A stretch of DNA of 56,435 bases, counting the filler, from Porpidia crustulata (taxonomy: Eukaryota): NCBI GenBank assembly GCA_964255105.1. It is 5 parts of 5 records of this genome, joined end to end, with 100 filler letters (N's around TTAATTAATTAA, not from the genome) between each part and the next. Parts side by side here need not be neighbours in the genome. Positions count along the whole stretch, not along the records: positions 33,975 to 45,163 come from CAXUWE010000688.1; 4 more parts are not named here. One strand, 5' to 3'. This document shows positions 11,229 to 45,263 of this stretch, piece by piece; positions within the stretch are counted from its first letter, which is position 1; every line of letters begins with the position of its first letter. Position numbers and translations under genes: made by a program. Under the pieces are notes generated by a model. The model did not search any database. It was not told the DNA's origin and was given only the letters and a program-made list of their open reading frames with translations.

Positions 11229-11328
11229 NNNNNNNNNNNNNNNNNNNNNNNNNNNNNNNNNNNNNNNNNNNNTTAATTAATTAANNNNNNNNNNNNNNNN
11301 NNNNNNNNNNNNNNNNNNNNNNNNNNNN
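11229..11328. other. Artificial contig spacer (N run containing TTAATTAATTAA)
   Basis: 100-nt N block with a six-frame stop linker. Confidence 0.97.
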
Positions 11329-22555: not shown

Positions 22556-22655
22556 NNNNNNNNNNNNNNNNNNNNNNNNNNNNNNNNNNNNNNNNNNNNT
22601 TAATTAATTAANNNNNNNNNNNNNNNNNNNNNNNNNNNNNNNNNNNNNNNNNNNN
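22556..22655. other. Artificial contig spacer
   Basis: N run with TTAATTAATTAA linker. Confidence 0.97.
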
Positions 22656-33874: not shown

Positions 33875-33974
33875 NNNNNNNNNNNNNNNNNNNNNNNNNN
33901 NNNNNNNNNNNNNNNNNNTTAATTAATTAANNNNNNNNNNNNNNNNNNNNNNNNNNNNNNNNNNNNNNNNNNNN
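33875..33974. other. Artificial contig spacer
   Basis: N run with TTAATTAATTAA linker. Confidence 0.97.
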
Positions 33975-34686
33975 GATGCCGACGACTACGCGCTGGAGGT
34001 CGCCCAACGGCTGCGCGCGGCGGGGCTGGGGGGGGGCGGGGCCCCACCCCCCCGGAACCTCACCAAAGATCAGCAACTCCTCCCTCAAATTCCCTACTCA
34101 AGTCCCCCATATCGCCCATTGAATCTCTACCGCCTTCAACTCCCATCGCAACCATGACTTCTTATACCTCTCAATTACTCCCAGCATCACGCAAATCTCA
34201 CTCGCGCTATCTCACTAATGCTGTCTCACTTCCATCATCATCACGCATATGCAACAGCGGCTGACCGTCTACCCGTCTGTGGCACAGTCCGGTAGTCACA
34301 AAGATCATCGCAGGAAACAGACATATCATTGGTGACCCACGCCGGAGTTCCCACGTTGGCTGACGGGTATTCTCCGGTAGAGATCCAACTTTTGCCGGTT
34401 CGGGCATGAAGTTGACGTGAGGCGTTGGAGCTACGACTCCATGGCGTTGAAGGTCCCCGAAGGTACCGCCGTCCTCTGGGGGAAGCCTGCGATGAGGGTG
34501 GGGGGGAGGTCGAGACGAGGATTTGCTTCTTTGTACTTTATCCCAATTTCTCAAACCGTTCATTGCCAGAAGCACCTGATTCTTGTCGCGCAATCAGTCT
34601 GCTTTCTTTGAACGTTTCGCAATATCTCGTACTCTCCATCTTTAAAATAGCGGAGCTCCTACACCATCCGCTGCTGATGCCCAAGC

Positions 34687-35887
34687 ATGGACACAATCAG
34701 CCATCCCAATGGAAGCCGCCAGCACCAAATCATCGGCGTGGCCAGCATGTTACTATTCCTCTCCACCGCGGCTGTTGCCTTTCGCCTGCTTATTCGCCGT
34801 ACAACGGGTCTGGGCTTGTGGTGGGATGATTACACGATAGTCTTTGCCTTGGTACGACAATGCCCGAATGCATTTCACTGTGATATGATGGCTGATTTGT
34901 CCGGTATCACAGATCCTGTCATGGGCGTCTCCAATCTGCAACCTCGTTGGTGAGTGCGAACCAGTGAGACTTTGCGATGGCAATCGCTGATCACATTAGG
35001 GCTACGATACGGCCTTGGAAAACACGCCGAGGTCGTCGGACCAGAGAAAATAACCCAATACCTAAAAGTAAACCCCCTTTCATCTCCACTCATCCATACC
35101 ACTTAACCCTCTCAACCAGGTCCTCTACACCTTCGAAGTCCTCTGGACCCTCACCATCCCCGTCATCAAAACCTCCATCCTCCTTCTCTACAACCGCATC
35201 TTCCCCGTCCCCCGCGTCCGCCTCGCCACCTCCGTCGTCGCCTTCTTCGTCCTCACCTGGCTCCTCTGGGCCGGCGTCTCCACCATCGCCCAATGCGCCC
35301 CCGTCCCGTATTTCTGGGACCGCGCCATCCCCGGCGGCCACTGCATCAACAACGACGCCTTCTATATCGCCGCGGGCGCGGTGAATGTCTTCACCGACTT
35401 TGCCATCATCGTCATCCCGGTGCCGATCATCTGGAATCTGCAGAAGATCAGCCTGGCGCAGAAGGTCGGCTTCGTGGCTGTGTTTTCCCTCGGCGGCTTC
35501 GTCTGCGTGGTCAGCATCATCCGGCTCGTCTACCTCGGCCGCATCTCCGCCGACGACATCACCTGGACCGACGCCTGGGGCGGCCTGTGGTCGTCAATGG
35601 AAGTGAGCCTCGACGTCGTGGCGGCGTGCTTGCCGGTCATTGCGCCGGGGATTTTGAAACTGGTGAGGCAAGGAAATCTACCGTGGTCGGGATTGCGGTC
35701 ATCTGGAGCGAGACAAACGCACGAGTCGAAGCCCGAGGGCAATCGCAACGTGGATGGGAGGCATCGAGACCCGGGGTTGGAGAGGGTGGGGTTTGAGAAC
35801 AAGGTTAATAGCAGCTGGTTGACGGATTCGTCGTATAATCGGGAACACAATGAAGCGACTCGAGCGGTTGCGCTCGAGCATGTTTGA
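34687..35887 (+). CDS. PTH11-like (fungal rhodopsin-domain) integral membrane protein
   Basis: AVAFRLLIRR...LWWDDYTIVFAL; YGLGKH; IKTSILLFYNRIF; QCAPVPYFWD...GGHC; NVFTDFAIIVIPVPIIWNLQ; WSSMEVSLDVVAACLP. Three introns in the 5' half. Confidence 0.9.
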
Positions 35888-36290
35888 ATGGGATGGGTTA
35901 TGGTTTCAACGTCTAGTGATGAGATTCAGTGAGGCGATAGGGATTGGGGATCGAGAAGTGGGAAGTGAAGAAATTTTCCACTGGCTTTGGGTGAATGATG
36001 TTCTTTTGAGATAGTAGGATGTTATGAAGGAGTGGGATGAGTAGCGATATCGGGATGTATTGAAGGACTGGGCGTCGATGAATTGATGAGTATACACATA
36101 TATAGGAGAGTCATGCGATATCATGTCTCATAGTGTATAAAACTGGAAACCACATTTTTAAGATTCCACGATGGTTTTTAGATCCTAGAAACCATAAACA
36201 CGACAACCGTTGCTTCATTCAACCTGTTGATATATCAACACCGGCCGGCAAGAGCGTCGAGTCTGTCCATAGAATCCGCTCATCAAGGCT

Positions 36291-37481
36291 TCATGCTGCA
36301 ACCGTATCATTTCCATTATTGCCCCGCCGATCCTCATACAACGACAGAGTCAGTGCATGATCCGTTCCTACACCAAATTTACATCAATACCCATCGACCC
36401 TACTTGCTCGGTCAAAAAAACGCAGTAAGGATGAAATGACTAACCTAGATTGCTAATCGTACCAGCCTTGCCGAACCGGCAACACATGGCATTAACCGCC
36501 ACGGCCGCGGTCCAGAAATTATACCAACTGTACCGGTCTACGTCGCCGGTGGTGTCGATTTTGATCTTGCATTTTCTGTCCGCTACGTTGATGTGAGTTA
36601 GCGGGGGCTGAGATCGGTCTCCTGTCTTCTCTCCGAAAGCAGAAAGGAAAGATGAGGGGTGCTAGCTCACATGCGATGAAATAATGCGGAAGGTCGTTCA
36701 TTAGACCGGGAACACTGTAGGGTCCGAATCGCTGCGTGCCGGTGTCCACGGGCATCTTACCCAAGATCTCTTCCACAGATCCGACTGCCGGAGCTGATCC
36801 GTAGATGTCGCATGTCACGGTCGCAGGACTATACCGACGGATGGTGACCTCAAGGCGTTCGTATTTGCCTGTGTCGGAATTGCTTTAGTTTGAAGAGCGG
36901 GATCATTTTGCAGACACTTACCAATTCCAAACGCGACACCCCCGGAGCGGGGAATGGGTTCGTGCGGGGAGTTTCCCCGGACGCAGGCGTTGTAGACGCC
37001 AGTTGCAGCCAAATGGATTTCGTGGTCGCTTATAAGGTCGGCTTGGCGCGATTCTATGGATGTTATGTCGATGGCGCAAAGGCCGTCTCCTGTTGCGTGT
37101 TAGTCCGAGCGTGCGAATTGTTATTCATCTTCTGGCTGACGTACTGCTGAGATATCGGTATGGCATCTTGACGTCCCAGTCCCCGGTTGTTCGATGGCCG
37201 AATTCTTTTTGGGTCTCGTCCATGGATATCAAGCTGATTGCGTCGGAACAGCTTTCGATACTTAGACCGACGTCATAGCCTTTTTCGTTGCATATGATCC
37301 TAGGGCCATTGCCGGTGGAAATATTAGATGCTGAGGTCGGCGACGGGGTTATTGTGAGGCTTGAGGTATTGGATGCGGAGGTTGTATCTGAAGGGAACAA
37401 TTTGTATGCCTGATCTAGGACAGCTGCTGAGCTGCAGCAAACTAGATACGTAACGATCGTAGAAAGGTGGAGCAAAGACAT
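36291..37481 (-). CDS. Secreted protein with two tandem Cys-containing domains (effector-like)
   Basis: Signal peptide MSLLHLSTIVTYLVCCSSA. Exons joined across four GT-AG introns give two similar repeats (C...FG...P...D..C.I.I...AA..V...C...G...G). Stop TGA at 36291. Confidence 0.75.
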
Positions 37482-39691
37482 GGTTGTAATTTATGCGGAT
37501 GCTTGAATTCAACACATCGGTGACAAAATCATCGAAGGAGCGGAGGAAATTCTCTCTGGGACCGAGCTGGTCGACTCAAATATCTTTCATCATGGGCACG
37601 CAAGGAACTTTTTATACATGGACTTCAACATCAGCCTTGACAAGTAGCGAAGATTGATTCGAAGCGCCGAAGCGACTCGGAAAGTATCCGATCATTAATA
37701 AAAAGCTAGGAAATGCCATGAGTTTACATAATGAGAAAAAGCTCAGGCACAGAAATGACTGCTTGCGACGTCGCATTGTTCAGGAAGCGATAGGCGCGTC
37801 GTATCCACAATGCTCACGGTCATCAACTCCATTGAACACATTCAAGCTCTTTTTCTCTTGGTAGGGTATGCTGGCATGGCCGAAATATGTTCGAAGTCTA
37901 GTCATTGGGGTTCACTGTGATGGGGAGATGTTACCTAGAGTATCGAGGCGAGAACGTATAAATCAAGCGTCTAGACCGAATTAGGCAATACAAATCGCGC
38001 TCCTCGATATGCTTCTCCTCTTTACGGAAGCACCAATCCAAGAAGGCGTCAACTTATCTACCAAAAGCATGCTCTTGAAAGATCAATATTTATCCTAGAT
38101 GTCCTAGAACTCTCTGACCTAGCTCAAATCAAGGGCAAAGGGCGCAATGCAGTCAGCTTCGAAGTCGAAGATCACTCTTTGTTAAAGACATCCAACCCTC
38201 AGGCGATTACGTTTAGCAATGTATGAGAATGAGCTTCTTCCTTATAAATAAGACTGGGTTGCCCCTTCCGCTGGCAGGTTCGTAGCCTGCCCAATCAGCT
38301 CTCGGTTACTTGACCTCTGTGTAAACGGAGAGCGTAGCATCCATTACGAAAAAAACGTCGCCTTGTCCCCTGTTTGTTACTGTTTTCACTCTGCTCCGTT
38401 TTCGCAGCGTTGTCGCCTGCTATCCTCCTGCACTGCTGAATCTTCGTTGCTTGCTCCGTCCACTTCTCCTGGCCAGAACGACACTGATACATATGTAAGC
38501 CAACAGCGTATGGGCGACGGCGCAGTCAAGATCAGAATCCAAGATTTGGGGGACAGCGGGATCGTTGAGGCATGCAACGGAGGTCCACGCGCACTTGGTA
38601 TTCTCGCGGGTGACTGTCAAGGTCACACACTTAGCGTCTTGTGGGAGCAAATTAATGATGAAGGGGCCTAGCCTTAGCCACACGTTGCCTACTGTATTCA
38701 TGAACAAGATAGATTTAAAGTCACGTGTGCACGAACGATCCTGGAACAAAAATGCAATTACGACCTAGCTACCAGGCTGCCACACTATTCCTAGCTGTTT
38801 CGCTATCGTCTCCTTATGTTCAATAGACCCCCATCGCATCACGTTGTCAACCGCTTCACCATCTAAGCAAAATGCCAGTGATGTTCGTCCGTTTACTGCG
38901 CTATCTAAATTTCTGTTCTAACAAAAGTTTGCAAGTCTTCTTTAATCTATAGACTGAGCATCGACGCTTTGTCAAAATTGCAAAATTTCTTGCGAGATTC
39001 TTCATTGCGCAGCATGTAGTTTGATATGGTAAACCCTTTTGCCCTTGTCAGGGGCAGGCAGCCTTTCATTTCCAGCAGAGAATATAGAGGAAAATGAAAA
39101 CAGAGCCAGGATGTGTGGTTCCAGCAACCATAGTCATTGATACGAATCCGGTTCAGAAATTCCGATTCAGAAGATGATCATGCTCCCAGAATCCACATGC
39201 CAAACCGGATCGGGGCTTCCAACATATCCCCTGTCACGAATCCTCAACAACAATCAGACAAATCACAATCCCGATCCCAAATCAAACAGCAGTCATGGCT
39301 GTACTGAGGGGTCCTCAGGAAAGGTTAGGTCTGGCGATTCACAATTATTATCACGTAGCTGCTGTTTGTAATCCTTGGATCACTAGCACGCAGTTACGCC
39401 TTCTTATTTTGGAACGAGAAAACACTCGGGTTTCAACTTTACACCTTACATCATCGTGGTGTAATCTGACTCATCTCTTACTCTCTTCAAAGGAATTGAG
39501 AATTGGATATGGAGCAGAATCAATTGTAGTAATATAGTCATTAGTACGCTAGTCTTTGCAAGCTATCTGGCTATAATCTGATTCGTATAATGGGGAGATG
39601 TATATCCGTTGATACCCTCTGGACAGTCTGTAGCCTACCCAGAATCAACCCTACTCATGGTGGTTCTTTAACCAAACCTGACCCCTCGAAT

Positions 39692-40836
39692 CTAGCATCC
39701 AAGATTGATCGCGTTCGAATATAAAGCATATGTATCCGCATTCAGCACAGCCAACCTGGTCGACAACGCTGTCGAGGCCGCATACCCGTACGCGTTATCT
39801 GCTGTTCCCGGGCTATAGGTTGCCGGCGCATGCGTAAACTCATGAATACTCGTCGTTACTTGATCCTGGGCATGGCAAGTGCTCGTCAAGTGCGGGAGAT
39901 AGGAGTAGTAGATCTTGCAGTTGGCGATGATGTTCTGCGAGGGGATCGTGTAGGCGAGAACGTTGGGGGAGCAGTAGTTCGAGACGTCATCGCAGTAGTA
40001 GGTTGTCCCCCCGCCGGTGGTGCCCCTGGCTTGGGCTGCAACGCCAGCTAGGCGGTTGCTCACAGTTTGACGGGTTTGGGAGTCGGTGGCCCTGAAGTAT
40101 TCGTTGAATTTGGCGGCATTTCCATATAGGGCGGCGTTGGCGGCAGCGCTAGCTAAATTTGCTGCATCGCTAAGGGCTCGATCCAGAGCAGATAGCTCAG
40201 TACCACTACATCTAGATACGGTAGTTCTCTTGTTGATGATCTTGATGGCTGGAGCAACATTTGCAACTTTAGTGGCATCCACATTAATCGACAACTTGTT
40301 GCTTTGGTAGAAGATTTTGGCTCCGGACAGGGTAGCAGTGCCCGCAGTGGCGACAGGAAAGGCGCCTTCAGTGATGACCTCGAAGTTGCCGCCGGCCTTC
40401 ATGTCGGTGACGGCGGCAAGGTCAAACGTCGAGTCGACGGATTTGCCAGCGCCGATTGTTGTGAAGGCATCCATTTCTAAATCCGTCGTTTTGATACGTA
40501 ACAGAATGCCTGTGTGAGCGAGAGCGACGCCTACTATGGCATTAGAAATCTCTATCCTTGGTATATATCTACCTACAGAGAAAGTCGGCTGGAGAAGGAC
40601 TTCGTACCGTCCTTGTAGACAGTAGCTTTATAAACAGGTGCAGCATCCAAGAAGCTTCCTGCCTTGAGCACAGAAATATCATCCGCGGCATTATTCTTGA
40701 TTGTGACTTTGACAACGCTCTCTTGTACAGAGGAGATGGTGACAGTCACGTCATCGGCCCGCTTCTCAATAGCAAGAGAAGATACGAAGGGGGAAACAAT
40801 TGCTGCTGCAAGCAAGATGGAGTTGAAAAATTGCAT
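39692..40836 (-). CDS. Secreted neutral protease 2 / deuterolysin (peptidase M35)
   Basis: Signal peptide MQFFNSILLAAAIVSPFVSS, prodomain, KR processing site (INKR|TTVSRC), zinc motif HEFTH, downstream GTAD and NADTYALY. Intron 40607-40531. Confidence 0.95.
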
Positions 40837-42271
40837 GGTGACTGGAATCGCAATACGACTGGGATGGGTGCTGAGAAAACTGTTCACATTCCAGCCAAAA
40901 CCTTCATCCTTCTCCCAGTCTCTTATAGCTATGATGATAAATTGAAATAGGAAGTTGCACGTTCATCGTGGGCAACACACCTCTTTGAGCTTTCAATGCC
41001 GATACTACTCTTGTGACCTTGGATATGATGCCAGCCTGTCAAATATCGTAACAAATATGAGCAGGCAACCAACGAGATTGTCGTTGCGATAGCAAAATCG
41101 ACGCTGATTTGCTGAGCATTCAACCTCATTCAGAAGGTTACCTTGACGCCAAGGGGATTAAAACATATTCAGCGAGCTGCTGCTGCAGATCTTCAAAACT
41201 GAGGGTTGGAAATGTCAGTCATGATTGCCAGGATGATGATAAGTCGGGAACGTGCATAAGTCAAGCAGCAATAGTGTCAACAGCGGAAGAACGGAATGCA
41301 TGCCATTCTGAGTAAGAAGATTGGAAACCTAAGGTAGACGAGGAAAGTTCAAGGTCTTGACTAAAGTAATGTCCTGGAAACGCAGTGCATTGGGCATATT
41401 TTGTTATTCTTTTATAGGTCTCTAACATGATTTGGCCCACAGTAGAATTCGAGATTTGGAATTCAGAGGTCGTAAACCGTCGAGTCAACAGCTTTAGGGT
41501 CGAAAAGAAGCAGTCCCATCGATAGAATCACATCGAAATTGCTCGTAGAGTTTAGTCATCTCAGGAGATTTGAGGTTCCACTTGAGATTTGGAGTGCTGA
41601 TGGAAGTACCATTCGTCCACCCACATGGTAGGCTGTGAGCCACGGAGACAGATGAATCAACTTTCCGGAGTCGCGTGAACGACATGGCCTGGAGCGGCGT
41701 GCCATCGGAGAAGTCGTGCAGATTCGGAAGACTTTCGCCTACGAAGCAGCTGTGGATGCAATTTATCAAGGGACAGTCCACCAGACTTAACGACTGAAAT
41801 GGACAAAACACTGATTATACAAGACGTGAATGGACTGTAGAAGGTTCCATCAGTACTTGGCGATGAAACATCGACATGCATCGATGCAGGAAATAATGTG
41901 CGAAAACGGAGAATTTCCAAACATAGTTGGTGACTTCGGGGAAAAACAACCAAACACATGAGGGGTAAAGCCCTAAAGAAGAGAGAAGGTGAAGAGAAGT
42001 CTGCAGGTGAATACTAGTGTTGTCCTCCTTGACCAATCGCCATCTCAATTCATGAGCCTGAGATGCTTAATCCAACGTCTTGAAGCCCAACCCTTATTCT
42101 ATACGCGGGGAGGATGCTGGAAAGGCAGGTAACACTGGCCGAATGGGTTGTTCATGTTGCAGCATGGGAGTAGAATAACCCCTGAACGTCACCAATGCGG
42201 AATGAGGGGACGGGAGAGAGATAAGGCGCGCTAACAGAAGAAAGCAGGTGGTTTAGTCCAGGTGCGACGTG

Positions 42272-42303
42272 TTGGAGGTTGGAGGTTGGAGGTTGGAGGT
42301 TGG
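42272..42303. repeat. (TTGGAGG)n heptamer repeat in the divergent intergenic region
   Basis: ttggaggttggaggttggaggttggaggttgg. Confidence 0.75.
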
Positions 42304-42604
42304 GAGTTGGCGGATCTGACGATTTGCAACCTCCGAGATCTCGCTATTTTGGTTCATGTCCGCTGACTAAGACCGTCTTGTCCAATCATGTGATCTCATC
42401 TGCCTCGCTTCTCTGCCCCGGCGTCAGGCCGGTGGACTGAGGCACAATTAGTCGGAAAGCATACTTGGAAGCTTACCTTATTATTTCTCATCCAATAGTG
42501 CATTGGGCAATTAAAGCACAAACAAATACTCTGGTATCCCCACCGCTCTTGAAGTGCACCGTTTCTAGATTTACCTCAATCCCATCCTACGCCTTTCCAT
42601 CCCC

Positions 42605-43126
42605 ATGTCGTCGAGCGGTCAGTTGTCAATGGTGGATCTCTCCTGGGCACTGCAGACCTGGATCTGCCCAGTGGCCTCATCTCTTCGGCCAGGAGCACCC
42701 TTTACAATCGATGTAATCGTTCGGAATAATCTTGATCATCCGTTGACTGTGCTCACCTGGGACTCCCCTCTTGACCAGAAGGCAGGCATCCTAGGCATCT
42801 TTCAAGCTCGAGATGTCGAAGAGGACGAGTTAATCCAAGGAGACTTCCTCAGATTTCGACGGAAGATGCCTCCCCCCAAAGACAGCTTTCGCGAGATTGG
42901 TGGCAAGGAGCAGATCACACAACGTATCACACTTCCTGGATTGCGGTTGTCCACTGGTACAGAATTCATCATCGAAGGGAGAGGGCGATGGCAAGCTGTC
43001 TGGAATTGTCCGATGGCTGATGTCGACGAGTCTTTGCTAGTATCTCTAGCCGACGCACATTGTGGGGACGTCTTTTGCGTGAGTGACAGCTTCGAGATCA
43101 ACGACGAAAGCTCGAGTACAGAATAG
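42605..43126 (+). CDS. Stand-alone M35-prodomain-like protein with no signal peptide and no catalytic domain
   Basis: Intact 173-aa ORF. VIVRNNLDHPLTVLTWDSPLD aligns by eye with VTIKNNAADDISVLKAGSFLD in the adjacent protease prodomain. Confidence 0.75.
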   Translation: MSSSGQLSMVDLSWALQTWICPVASSLRPGAPFTIDVIVRNNLDHPLTVLTWDSPLDQKAGILGIFQARDVEEDELIQGDFLRFRRKMPPPKDSFREIGGKEQITQRITLPGLRLSTGTEFIIEGRGRWQAVWNCPMADVDESLLVSLADAHCGDVFCVSDSFEINDESSSTE

Positions 43127-44585
43127 AAGATCAACTACCAATGAGCGTGTATCTTCTTCCAAAACATATACACGGTAAGCTGTGTGTTCTGGCAAGAGGC
43201 AATGCAAAGCGCCTGAAAATTAGAGATCACTACAATTCTGAGATACATATGGAAGAGGTCAATAGGATGTAACAATTTTGATGCACGAGTATCGACAATC
43301 ACTGGCCTGGGATAGATTGCGAGCCATTCATGATGGGGTGAGCGATTTTAAATATGGCAGCACAGGCGAATATGTCTTGGACTTTCCCAGGCCAAAAAGA
43401 TTTTACATACCTTGTACACTAGCGGGGCGACGGATTTAAAGGAAAAGGCTCTAGTCTCGAGTCCAGATCGATAGGGATCCGGCCGGACTTCAAAGGAAAT
43501 GAGTTGGCGATTGGACAGTATTATCAAGTGCATGCGGAACCAGACGTTATCTTTGAACGAGGAGTACCTGACAAAGGCTTGGACTACTGTTGAGGAAGCA
43601 GCATTCATTTCTGGACACGTGCTAGAACTCTAGACATAGCGAGACATTCGTATATGCAAAGCTCCGGACTTGATCGTCAAGGCTAAAGTAACATTGGACC
43701 TAGTCTTGTTCGTAATGTTCGCTCCTCTAATGCTTGAATTTTAGGTGGGCGACTCTGGGAAACGGCCAAGAGGCGGATTATCAGGGGAAAGACTCACAAG
43801 AACGGACTTGCATGGGGAACAAGGAACATAGGAATCCACCAAATTTGTCATGTATAGGACCCGGACAAGACGGCTAATACACATCGCGTCTTGAAAGATG
43901 CTCCAGGACTCTTCCCGAATCGCTCCTCAGGTTTCGGTTTGTTATCCAACTCGCTGGCCACAGTGTCGCAAAAAAAATCCAGGAGGTAGGCCAGAAGATG
44001 CCTACTTCTGAATTCTGTTCGAGCTTCGCGTTGCAACGCTTGAGATCGCAGGATCTATAGGATCTAACATCGGAAACGCACGTACACCAGCAGGGTCACA
44101 TGGTCTTTTAGGACAAACCTCACAAAAAATAGTTCTTCTGATAGCATCGACTATCCTTTATATAAATAGGAGCAGGGTGGCGCGTTCGCGAGCTTCCGAA
44201 TTCACATCTTCCGCGACGAGAACCAAGGCATCACCCAAAAGCGCCATAGAGGCATGTTTAGCAATAGTATACCTAATTGCGATGTTTGAAGCGTTGAGCG
44301 TTGAGCGGCTGAAATAAAATAGGAAGCCCATTCATCGGGGAAAGGCCGGCAACAGGTATGGGTGAAGCCATAGGCGGTGCCTTTTATTTTATATTATTGT
44401 AGTCCTTGTGGTTGCAACATGACAATTTCAACCGGACTAGACGTAGATGGCGATAGAGTTGGAATGTTGAATCTGTGATTGACGATCATGCGTGTGAGGA
44501 ACTTGGATTGTCTCAAATACGCATCATCCCAGCTGTACAGCCTCAAGAGCCTCTAATCCATAAGTCTTAGCACCTCCCACGACCA

Positions 44586-45163
44586 ATGGATCCCGCCACT
44601 CTCATCGTCGCCGAACAGGCAGTCTCAACCACCGTCGAAGGAGCAGCTATCGCGGGCATTGGTCTAGCCCAAGCTACACAACCCTTGAGCGCCACCTTCA
44701 CCCGCATCACCAGTGAAGCATTCCTTCCTCGATTCAACCACACTCTGACAGTCGTCGCGGGGAAAGCTTATATATTTGGTGGAGAAGTCTCACCCGGCGA
44801 AGTCGCTGACGATGAGGTGCACATCGTGCGTATACCATCGAAGAATTCTCGAGGAGATGGAGAGCCGGAATACAAGTGTGTGCCTTCACTTGGAGAGGGC
44901 GACAATGGGAAAGTGCCCGGCTCAAGATCGGGGCATACAGCGTGTGCGATTGGGAACAAGATGTATGTCTGTGGTGGAAGGGGAAAGGATATGAAGGTAC
45001 TAGAAGAGAAGGGCCGCGTCTGGGTTTTCGACACAGGCACCTTGCACTGGAGTCATCTCAACCCCCTCTCCGAAATCTGTCCTCCGGATCGTTACCACCA
45101 CGGCTGCGTTTCAAGCGAGCTTCCCTTTTCTAGCACCCACGCCCTTCCCACGTCAACCTATAC
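44586..45163 (+). CDS. Kelch-repeat protein, 3' truncated at contig end
   Basis: PRFNHTLTVVAGKAYIFGGE; SRSGHTACAIGNKMYVCGG; VWVFDTGTLHW; RYHHGC. Confidence 0.85.
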
Positions 45164-45263
45164 NNNNNNNNNNNNNNNNNNNNNNNNNNNNNNNNNNNNN
45201 NNNNNNNTTAATTAATTAANNNNNNNNNNNNNNNNNNNNNNNNNNNNNNNNNNNNNNNNNNNN
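45164..45263. other. Artificial contig spacer
   Basis: N run with TTAATTAATTAA linker. Confidence 0.97.

Follow-up and report, generated by a model that had tools for sequence, protein, structure and literature searches.

The window, i.e., the whole stretch of DNA analyzed (56,435 nucleotides from Porpidia crustulata), consists of five contigs joined at positions 11229–11328, 22556–22655, 33875–33974, and 45164–45263. Each of the four joints is made up of 44 N, 12 nt, and another 44 N. Because the contigs were joined, gene neighborhood across a joint is no evidence. The two genes of interest, one for an M35 deuterolysin and one for a free-standing protein resembling an M35 prodomain, both lie on contig CAXUWE010000688.1 (window 33975–45163). 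One sequencing run, probably the source of this DNA itself, has a single contig spanning both genes, a result with no bearing on their expression. A single M35 gene and a single copy of the free-prodomain ORF were found in this fragmented genome. The features are as follows.

39692..40530, minus strand: M35 exon 2, with the rest of the propeptide, the KR processing site, the mature domain, and the stop codon (PF02102, E 1.6e-96; PF14521, E 4.5e-36)
39830..39844, minus strand: HEFTH zinc motif, mature residues 128–132, with the zinc ligand Asp143 and Tyr146 downstream
40531..40607, minus strand: putative M35 intron, with a GT donor at 40607, a branch-like CTAAT, and two in-frame AG acceptors
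40608..40836, minus strand: M35 exon 1, with the signal peptide and the start of the propeptide (PF02102, E 1.2e-07)
40837..42604, no strand: divergent intergenic region, 1,768 bp
42270..42475, plus strand: conserved non-coding block upstream of the free-prodomain ATG, 64–67% identical to loci L005–L014
42605..43126, plus strand: gene of one exon, encoding the 173-aa free M35-prodomain-like protein, which has no leader
42839..42868, plus strand: codons for residues 79–88, a strand predicted by the complex model to lie in the protease cleft
44586..45163, plus strand: gene with kelch repeats, truncated at the contig end; a synteny marker, also present in nine of the ten loci L005–L014

The kelch-gene position lies beyond the end of locus L011. 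The preliminary description placed the protease gene and the ORF head-to-head, and this layout holds: both genes are present, on opposite strands, with 1,768 bp between them. The same contig carries a gene for a fungal rhodopsin-domain (PF20684) membrane protein at 35072–35884.

The M35 gene runs on the minus strand from an ATG at 40836 to a stop codon at 39692. The predicted GT-AG intron is 74 or 77 nt long, giving a protein of 356 or 355 aa. The product is an M35 deuterolysin, as judged by a PF02102 match above cut-off, the HExxH and GTxDxxYG aspzincin motifs, a signal peptide, and a propeptide. That is, it has a hydrophobic N-terminus, a complete propeptide of its own, and a mature domain of 177 aa (39695–40225). 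PMC11985622 identifies the Tyr three residues past the zinc Asp as the proton donor. Among the best 120 of 155 matches, the named sequences closest to it are M35s from lichen-forming Lecanoromycetes, with 66% identity to that of Lecanora helva.

The product of the 173-aa ORF is acidic (26 D/E vs 15 K/R). As the preliminary description stated, it has no HExxH catalytic domain; nor does it match PF02102 or PF14521, so that the marks of an M35 peptidase are absent from 42605–43126. Single-sequence searches of PDB and Pfam with the ORF returned nothing, and no Pfam family was matched by the 134 aligned family members, apart from four single weak matches. A phmmer search without length limit found 172 clusters of similar length at E ≤ 0.001; the large-database search covered lengths up to 1.75 times. 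Named members come from Lecanoromycetes, Eurotiomycetes, Dothideomycetes, Sordariomycetes, and Pezizomycetes. HExxH was found in none of the 155 family proteins checked, and none of the eight longer members scanned showed a fusion to a catalytic domain. One protein, P0091, joins the family domain to a Sua5/YrdC domain in a single prediction, probably a gene-model artifact of read-through. None of 12 prokaryotic pattern matches was confirmed as a family member, which is no proof of absence because the pattern was narrow. The invariant residues specific to the family are W129, W133, P89, and P90, which define its W-x-A-V-W and PP motifs. Compared with the ten orthologous loci L005–L014 (70–72% identity), the ORF has a dN of ~0.18 with saturated dS. 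To judge from these comparisons, the 173-aa ORF is a real and conserved gene, a member of an ascomycete family as yet without a name.

The kinship of this family to M35 prodomains is clear, and it is seen at the profile and structure level only. The preliminary description had aligned the ORF with the propeptide of the neighboring protease through paired motifs. The quoted pairs do fall in the same register in a local alignment (residues 34–125), but the pairwise score is no better than chance: it is reached by 303 of 2000 shuffles, and the BLASTP E is 1.5. That alignment alone thus proves nothing, and it was set aside as proof of homology. Profiles give a different result. With hhalign, the family profile matches that of 66 fungal M35s with a probability of 97.3% (E 2.6e-11) over 139 columns, in the prodomain part only; the real score was 81.0, whereas all 40 column-shuffled controls scored 17.9 or less. 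The family profile is matched at E < 1e-3 by 58 of 67 full-length M35s, and in PDB the profile matches the AsaP1 zymogen best, in its propeptide (residues 27–125, E 0.004). Structure comparison agrees, as follows. The AlphaFold2 model of the ORF has a pLDDT of 93. Foldseek places AsaP1 at ranks 1–4 (best E 5e-05), and VIA places AsaP1 residues 23–158 first (Z 10.2, rmsd 4.4, 123 aligned) and BsuPI second (Z 9.2, rmsd 3.5, 114 aligned). The match to M35 prodomains is therefore borne out by both routes, with the AsaP1 propeptide first by Foldseek and VIA alike.

The preliminary description also called the ORF a copy of its neighbor's prodomain. A homologue of M35 prodomains it is; a copy of that propeptide it is not. 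In a tree, a branch with 100/100 support separates 25 free domains from 24 propeptides, and the window propeptide is among the latter. The rows of this tree were hand-picked from ~190 family and ~120 M35 proteins, leaving out bacterial and basidiomycete propeptides. Against the fungal M35 prodomain profile, the ORF ranks 129th of 134 family members (E 4.3). The chance-level pairwise score, this rank, and the separate clade rule out a recent copy. By these sequence comparisons, the free-prodomain family is old and separate from the M35 propeptides.

The term signal-less, also used in the preliminary description, fits the window ORF, which has no hydrophobic leader: the best 11-residue hydropathy in the first 25 residues is 1.0 for the ORF vs 2.4 for the M35. 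It does not describe the family, since an N-terminal extension is found in 84 of 134 members, 76 of which have a hydrophobic 15-mer in it, and the leaderless form seen in the window is in the minority. In 67 of the 76 leader-bearing members, an internal Met is kept 34–56 residues before the conserved Trp (22–31% expected, P 4e-25). This Met corresponds to the start site of the 50 short forms, the residue after it is usually A, S, or T, and long and short predictions coexist inside single 90% clusters. These gene predictions suggest that most members make two products per gene, one secretory or membrane-anchored and one cytosolic. The window copy itself makes only the short form, because an in-frame stop lies 12 codons upstream and there are frame-breaking indels relative to relatives; the same stop and indels exclude a conserved coding extension, and an upstream exon or leader for this copy was rejected on these grounds. 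P0002–P0004 also lack a leader. The window and three loci have a YAG at a corresponding position, but at 36 vs 38 nt from the ATG.

Between the two genes, the conserved block at 42270–42475 includes CCAAT at 42382 and TCATGTGA at 42386, and it is probably the promoter of the free-prodomain gene. Within it, at 42382–42393, CCAAT stands directly 5′ of ATCATGTGAT, which is E-box-like, can also be read as a start-stop ATG TGA, and is conserved. A short tandem run of GGAGGTT units was noted at 42277–42308, upstream of the conserved block. Motifs for PrtT, ZafA, and PacC, known from Aspergillus, were also counted in the intergenic region and set aside, as the counts had no chance model.

The ten loci L005–L014 represent one lineage, with long shared blocks 92–98% identical. 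No M35 catalytic domain is found within up to 10 kb of the partner gene in these loci. Instead, a relic of M35 exon 1, in divergent orientation, lies ~1.4 kb upstream of the partner gene in each of the ten and is split over two frames every time; in the two loci translated, it has no start codon. The relic lies at L005:8459–8645 and at the same place in L006–L014. Beyond the relic, sequence kinship with the window ends, as if a rearrangement had cut the protease gene. The divergent relic in all ten loci means that head-to-head linkage is ancestral in the group formed by the window and L005–L014. The partner ORF is intact in every one of these loci. Its seven distinct alleles differ by 17 synonymous and 14 non-synonymous changes, a pattern with a P of 2e-4 against neutrality, by which measure the partner gene is under purifying selection beside a dead protease. 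The idea of an obligate two-gene unit does not survive this finding, as the gene persists under selection next to a broken M35. Flanking genes other than M35 differ between the window and L005–L014. In L005 (13355–13978) and also in L009, a 208-codon open frame without a Pfam match lies between the partner and kelch genes, and it has no counterpart in the window. L015 and L016 have upstream sequence too short to inform on linkage.

Linkage could be assessed in six of 25 named species, all Eurotiomycetes, from the M35 list (the best 120 of 155 matches) or from a paper. A family gene is linked to an M35 gene in five of the six, three of them by adjacent locus tags: VTN02DRAFT_1372/1373 in Thermoascus thermophilus, FE257_002480/002481 in Aspergillus nanangensis, and ATEG_04942, the family gene, beside ATEG_04941 in A. 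terreus. PMC4102723 groups ATEG_04941 with AN7962, AO090001000135, NFIA_102630, and Afu4g13750; of these, NFIA_102630 appears under the name neutral protease 2 in the M35 list (best 120 of 155). For T. aurantiacus and A. egyptiacus, linkage is read only from the equal sizes of the contigs carrying the family gene and the M35. The exception is A. alliaceus: the best 120 of 155 include two M35s from this species, and its family gene has a match with neither. Two short contigs, of 13,505 and 16,335 bp, are common by size to a family member and an M35, where 0.09 would be expected. No matching close M35 was found for P0002, a 78%-identical orthologue, the best non-self match being 66% among the best 120 of 155. 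Microsporum canis C5FR80, which we take to lie beside a neutral protease 2 gene, was left out of the count. Gene orientation is established only for the window and L005–L014. The recurrence expected of homologues linked to M35 genes is thus found in five of six testable named species, by that M35 list or a paper. As to co-regulation, which the preliminary description had also proposed, a search of papers under guessed neighbor locus tags gave nothing usable on co-expression. A table in PMC3210457, which may bear on the point, names AFLA_065460, a gene without established family membership, and deuterolysin.

Conserved linkage, one mark of a protease/immunity pair, is found here (five of six testable named species by the M35 list or a paper, two contigs, and the relic in ten of ten loci). 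Another mark, loss of the partner together with its linked protease, is not seen in L005–L014.

A model of the ORF product with the mature window protease was built with ESMFold2. The score was 0.92 in three runs, vs 0.28 for the best of three controls; contacts agreed 100% between runs, and the partner pLDDT was at least 86. The score mark is reached by 51 of 78 solved vs 2 of 108 mismatched pairs and, among eukaryotes, by 39 of 65 vs 2 of 126. In the model, the ORF product blocks the active site, but the score may reflect memory of AsaP1: because the AsaP1 zymogen has been solved, it may show likeness and not binding of the window copy. In the modeled complex, ORF residues 79–88 lie along protease residues 86–97. 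Arg85 (42857–42859) is predicted to contact Leu90, Ala91, His128, Glu129, Tyr146, and Asp164, i.e., the zinc helix and pocket. Arg85 aligns with the Lys of the AsaP1 IKR motif, and a Lys of the AsaP1 propeptide reportedly fills the S1′ pocket of that enzyme. Of the 134 family members, 131 have Arg at the next position, 86, as have 49 of the 66 fungal M35 propeptides. Position 85 is variable (N in 48, R in 36, S in 30, and K in 6 of 134). The conserved residues 52 and 85–88 map onto the modeled protease interface.

A mechanism can be proposed along these lines. Once cleavage at the KR site has removed the protease's own propeptide, the free prodomain would re-block any enzyme active at a wrong site or time, its strand 79–88 pairing with the edge strand of the protease and Arg85 entering the active-site pocket, much as the propeptide of a zymogen does. 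It would act as a safety catch still in place after the propeptide is gone, and its target need not be limited to the neighboring protease. The weak step is where a leaderless inhibitor and a secreted protease would meet. The two could meet if the enzyme were mis-targeted or re-entered the cell, or upon cell lysis; alternatively, the inhibitor could face foreign M35s.

We consider it probable, taking all these results together, that the ORF product is a trans-acting inhibitor of mature deuterolysin-type proteases, from an old ascomycete family of free-standing prodomains that are often dual-targeted. The preliminary description also allowed for folding in trans, i.e., a helper that would bind M35, either nascent or already processed, within the secretory pathway and serve its folding, stability, or delivery without lasting inhibition. 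Propeptides are established intramolecular chaperones, that of AsaP1 reportedly included, and a helper would share the propeptide-like fold, the modeled interface, and the hydrophobic leader of 76 of 134 members. Yet the linked protease carries a complete propeptide of its own, and the window form and P0002–P0004 are leaderless, upstream indels excluding a conserved in-frame extension; for these reasons a folding helper fits poorly, folding in trans is left unsupported, and with the gene kept even where the linked protease is dead we regard this reading as quite unlikely. Selection beside a dead M35 would suit a prodomain-derived protein with another job, directed at proteases of another class or at a ligand that is not a protease, with the M35 neighborhood a leftover of its origin by duplication. 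The long branch separating the family from fungal M35 prodomains, its invariants W129, W133, P89, and P90, and a fold near that of the serine-protease inhibitor BsuPI (Z 9.2; Atlas lead 0.86–0.87) point the same way. Such a protein would not be expected to stay adjacent to M35 genes in both Lecanoromycetes-like and Eurotiomycetes genomes, though the other flanks of the window and L005–L014 differ, or to keep residues 52 and 85–88 on the modeled protease interface, and we hold this reading to be unlikely.

Finally, the ORF might be a truncated duplicate of the neighboring protease gene in decay, or spurious, as the lack of a signal peptide and a catalytic domain could suggest. This reading is largely refuted and has next to no probability left, given 172 clusters of similar length, HExxH in 0 of 155 proteins, a dN of ~0.18 with saturated dS against L005–L014, the conserved upstream block, and the separate clade at 100/100. 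The inhibitor reading can be extended, tentatively and with the odds against it, to a Pezizomycotina-wide set of immunity-like inhibitors of M35 aspzincins. These would have two-start secretory and cytosolic forms, travel with deuterolysin genes, have position 85 tuned to the specificity pocket of the target, and be kept as an orphan defense against the M35s of other organisms once the linked protease dies.

The free prodomains may well make up a family of protease inhibitors not described before. No description of it or of its M35 linkage was found in the open-access literature; PMC12924839, PMC3938660, and PMC11241649 were searched by term only, and the first two contain none of the synteny or prodomain terms searched for. 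Nor was a natural protein inhibitor or linked regulator of M35 deuterolysins found in that literature. Koji molds secrete M35 deuterolysins as major enzymes, and in fungal pathogens these proteases are reported to be virulence factors. With a candidate that is small, folds well, is linked to the protease gene, and has a predicted contact residue, M35 control becomes directly testable in Aspergillus nidulans or A. oryzae. The candidate also proposes an identity for hundreds of "hypothetical" proteins and may offer a tool to suppress M35 proteases in fermentation or infection models.

The closest known relatives are the M35 aspzincin zymogen propeptides (AsaP1, PDB 2x3a/2x3b/2x3c; fungal PF02102), which the family resembles in profile, in its β-sandwich fold, and, in the model, in a protease-cleft strand bearing a K/R-R motif. 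Unlike these propeptides, the family is a separate gene and clade without a catalytic domain or KR linker, has W-x-A-V-W and PP motifs, and often has a leader plus an internal Met. BsuPI has been described as a serine-protease inhibitor. BsuPI (PF12690, PDB 3isy) has a similar β-sandwich and is the nearest named Atlas cluster, but it is bacterial, the identity is 8%, and there is no PF12690 match. The arrangement of the locus recalls protealysin and emfourin, an M4 metalloprotease gene beside an inhibitor gene, proposed in PMC9505478 to be an effector/immunity pair. In both cases a metalloprotease gene adjoins an inhibitor gene, here a candidate one. No similarity to emfourin was found in the PDB profile search, Foldseek, VIA, or Pfam; protealysin–emfourin is a bacterial M4 operon, whereas the two window genes are transcribed divergently and the partner derives from a prodomain. 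In logic, the nearest parallels would be the I9 (yeast Pbi2, T. reesei TrI9) and I29 (CTLA-2, crammer) inhibitors, in which a separately encoded propeptide homologue inhibits the mature enzyme. POIA1 is another stand-alone I9 propeptide-like inhibitor. Inhibitor_I9 and Inhibitor_I29 Pfam models match none of the 134 family members at E ≤ 0.01. Free propeptide homologues such as TrI9 inhibit subtilisins (bioRxiv 10.64898/2026.05.05.722857), and stand-alone propeptide-like inhibitors are also reported in PMC4089206. The free-prodomain family differs from both in its unrelated fold, in facing a zinc aspzincin rather than a subtilisin or papain, and in having linkage to the target gene as a feature of its own.
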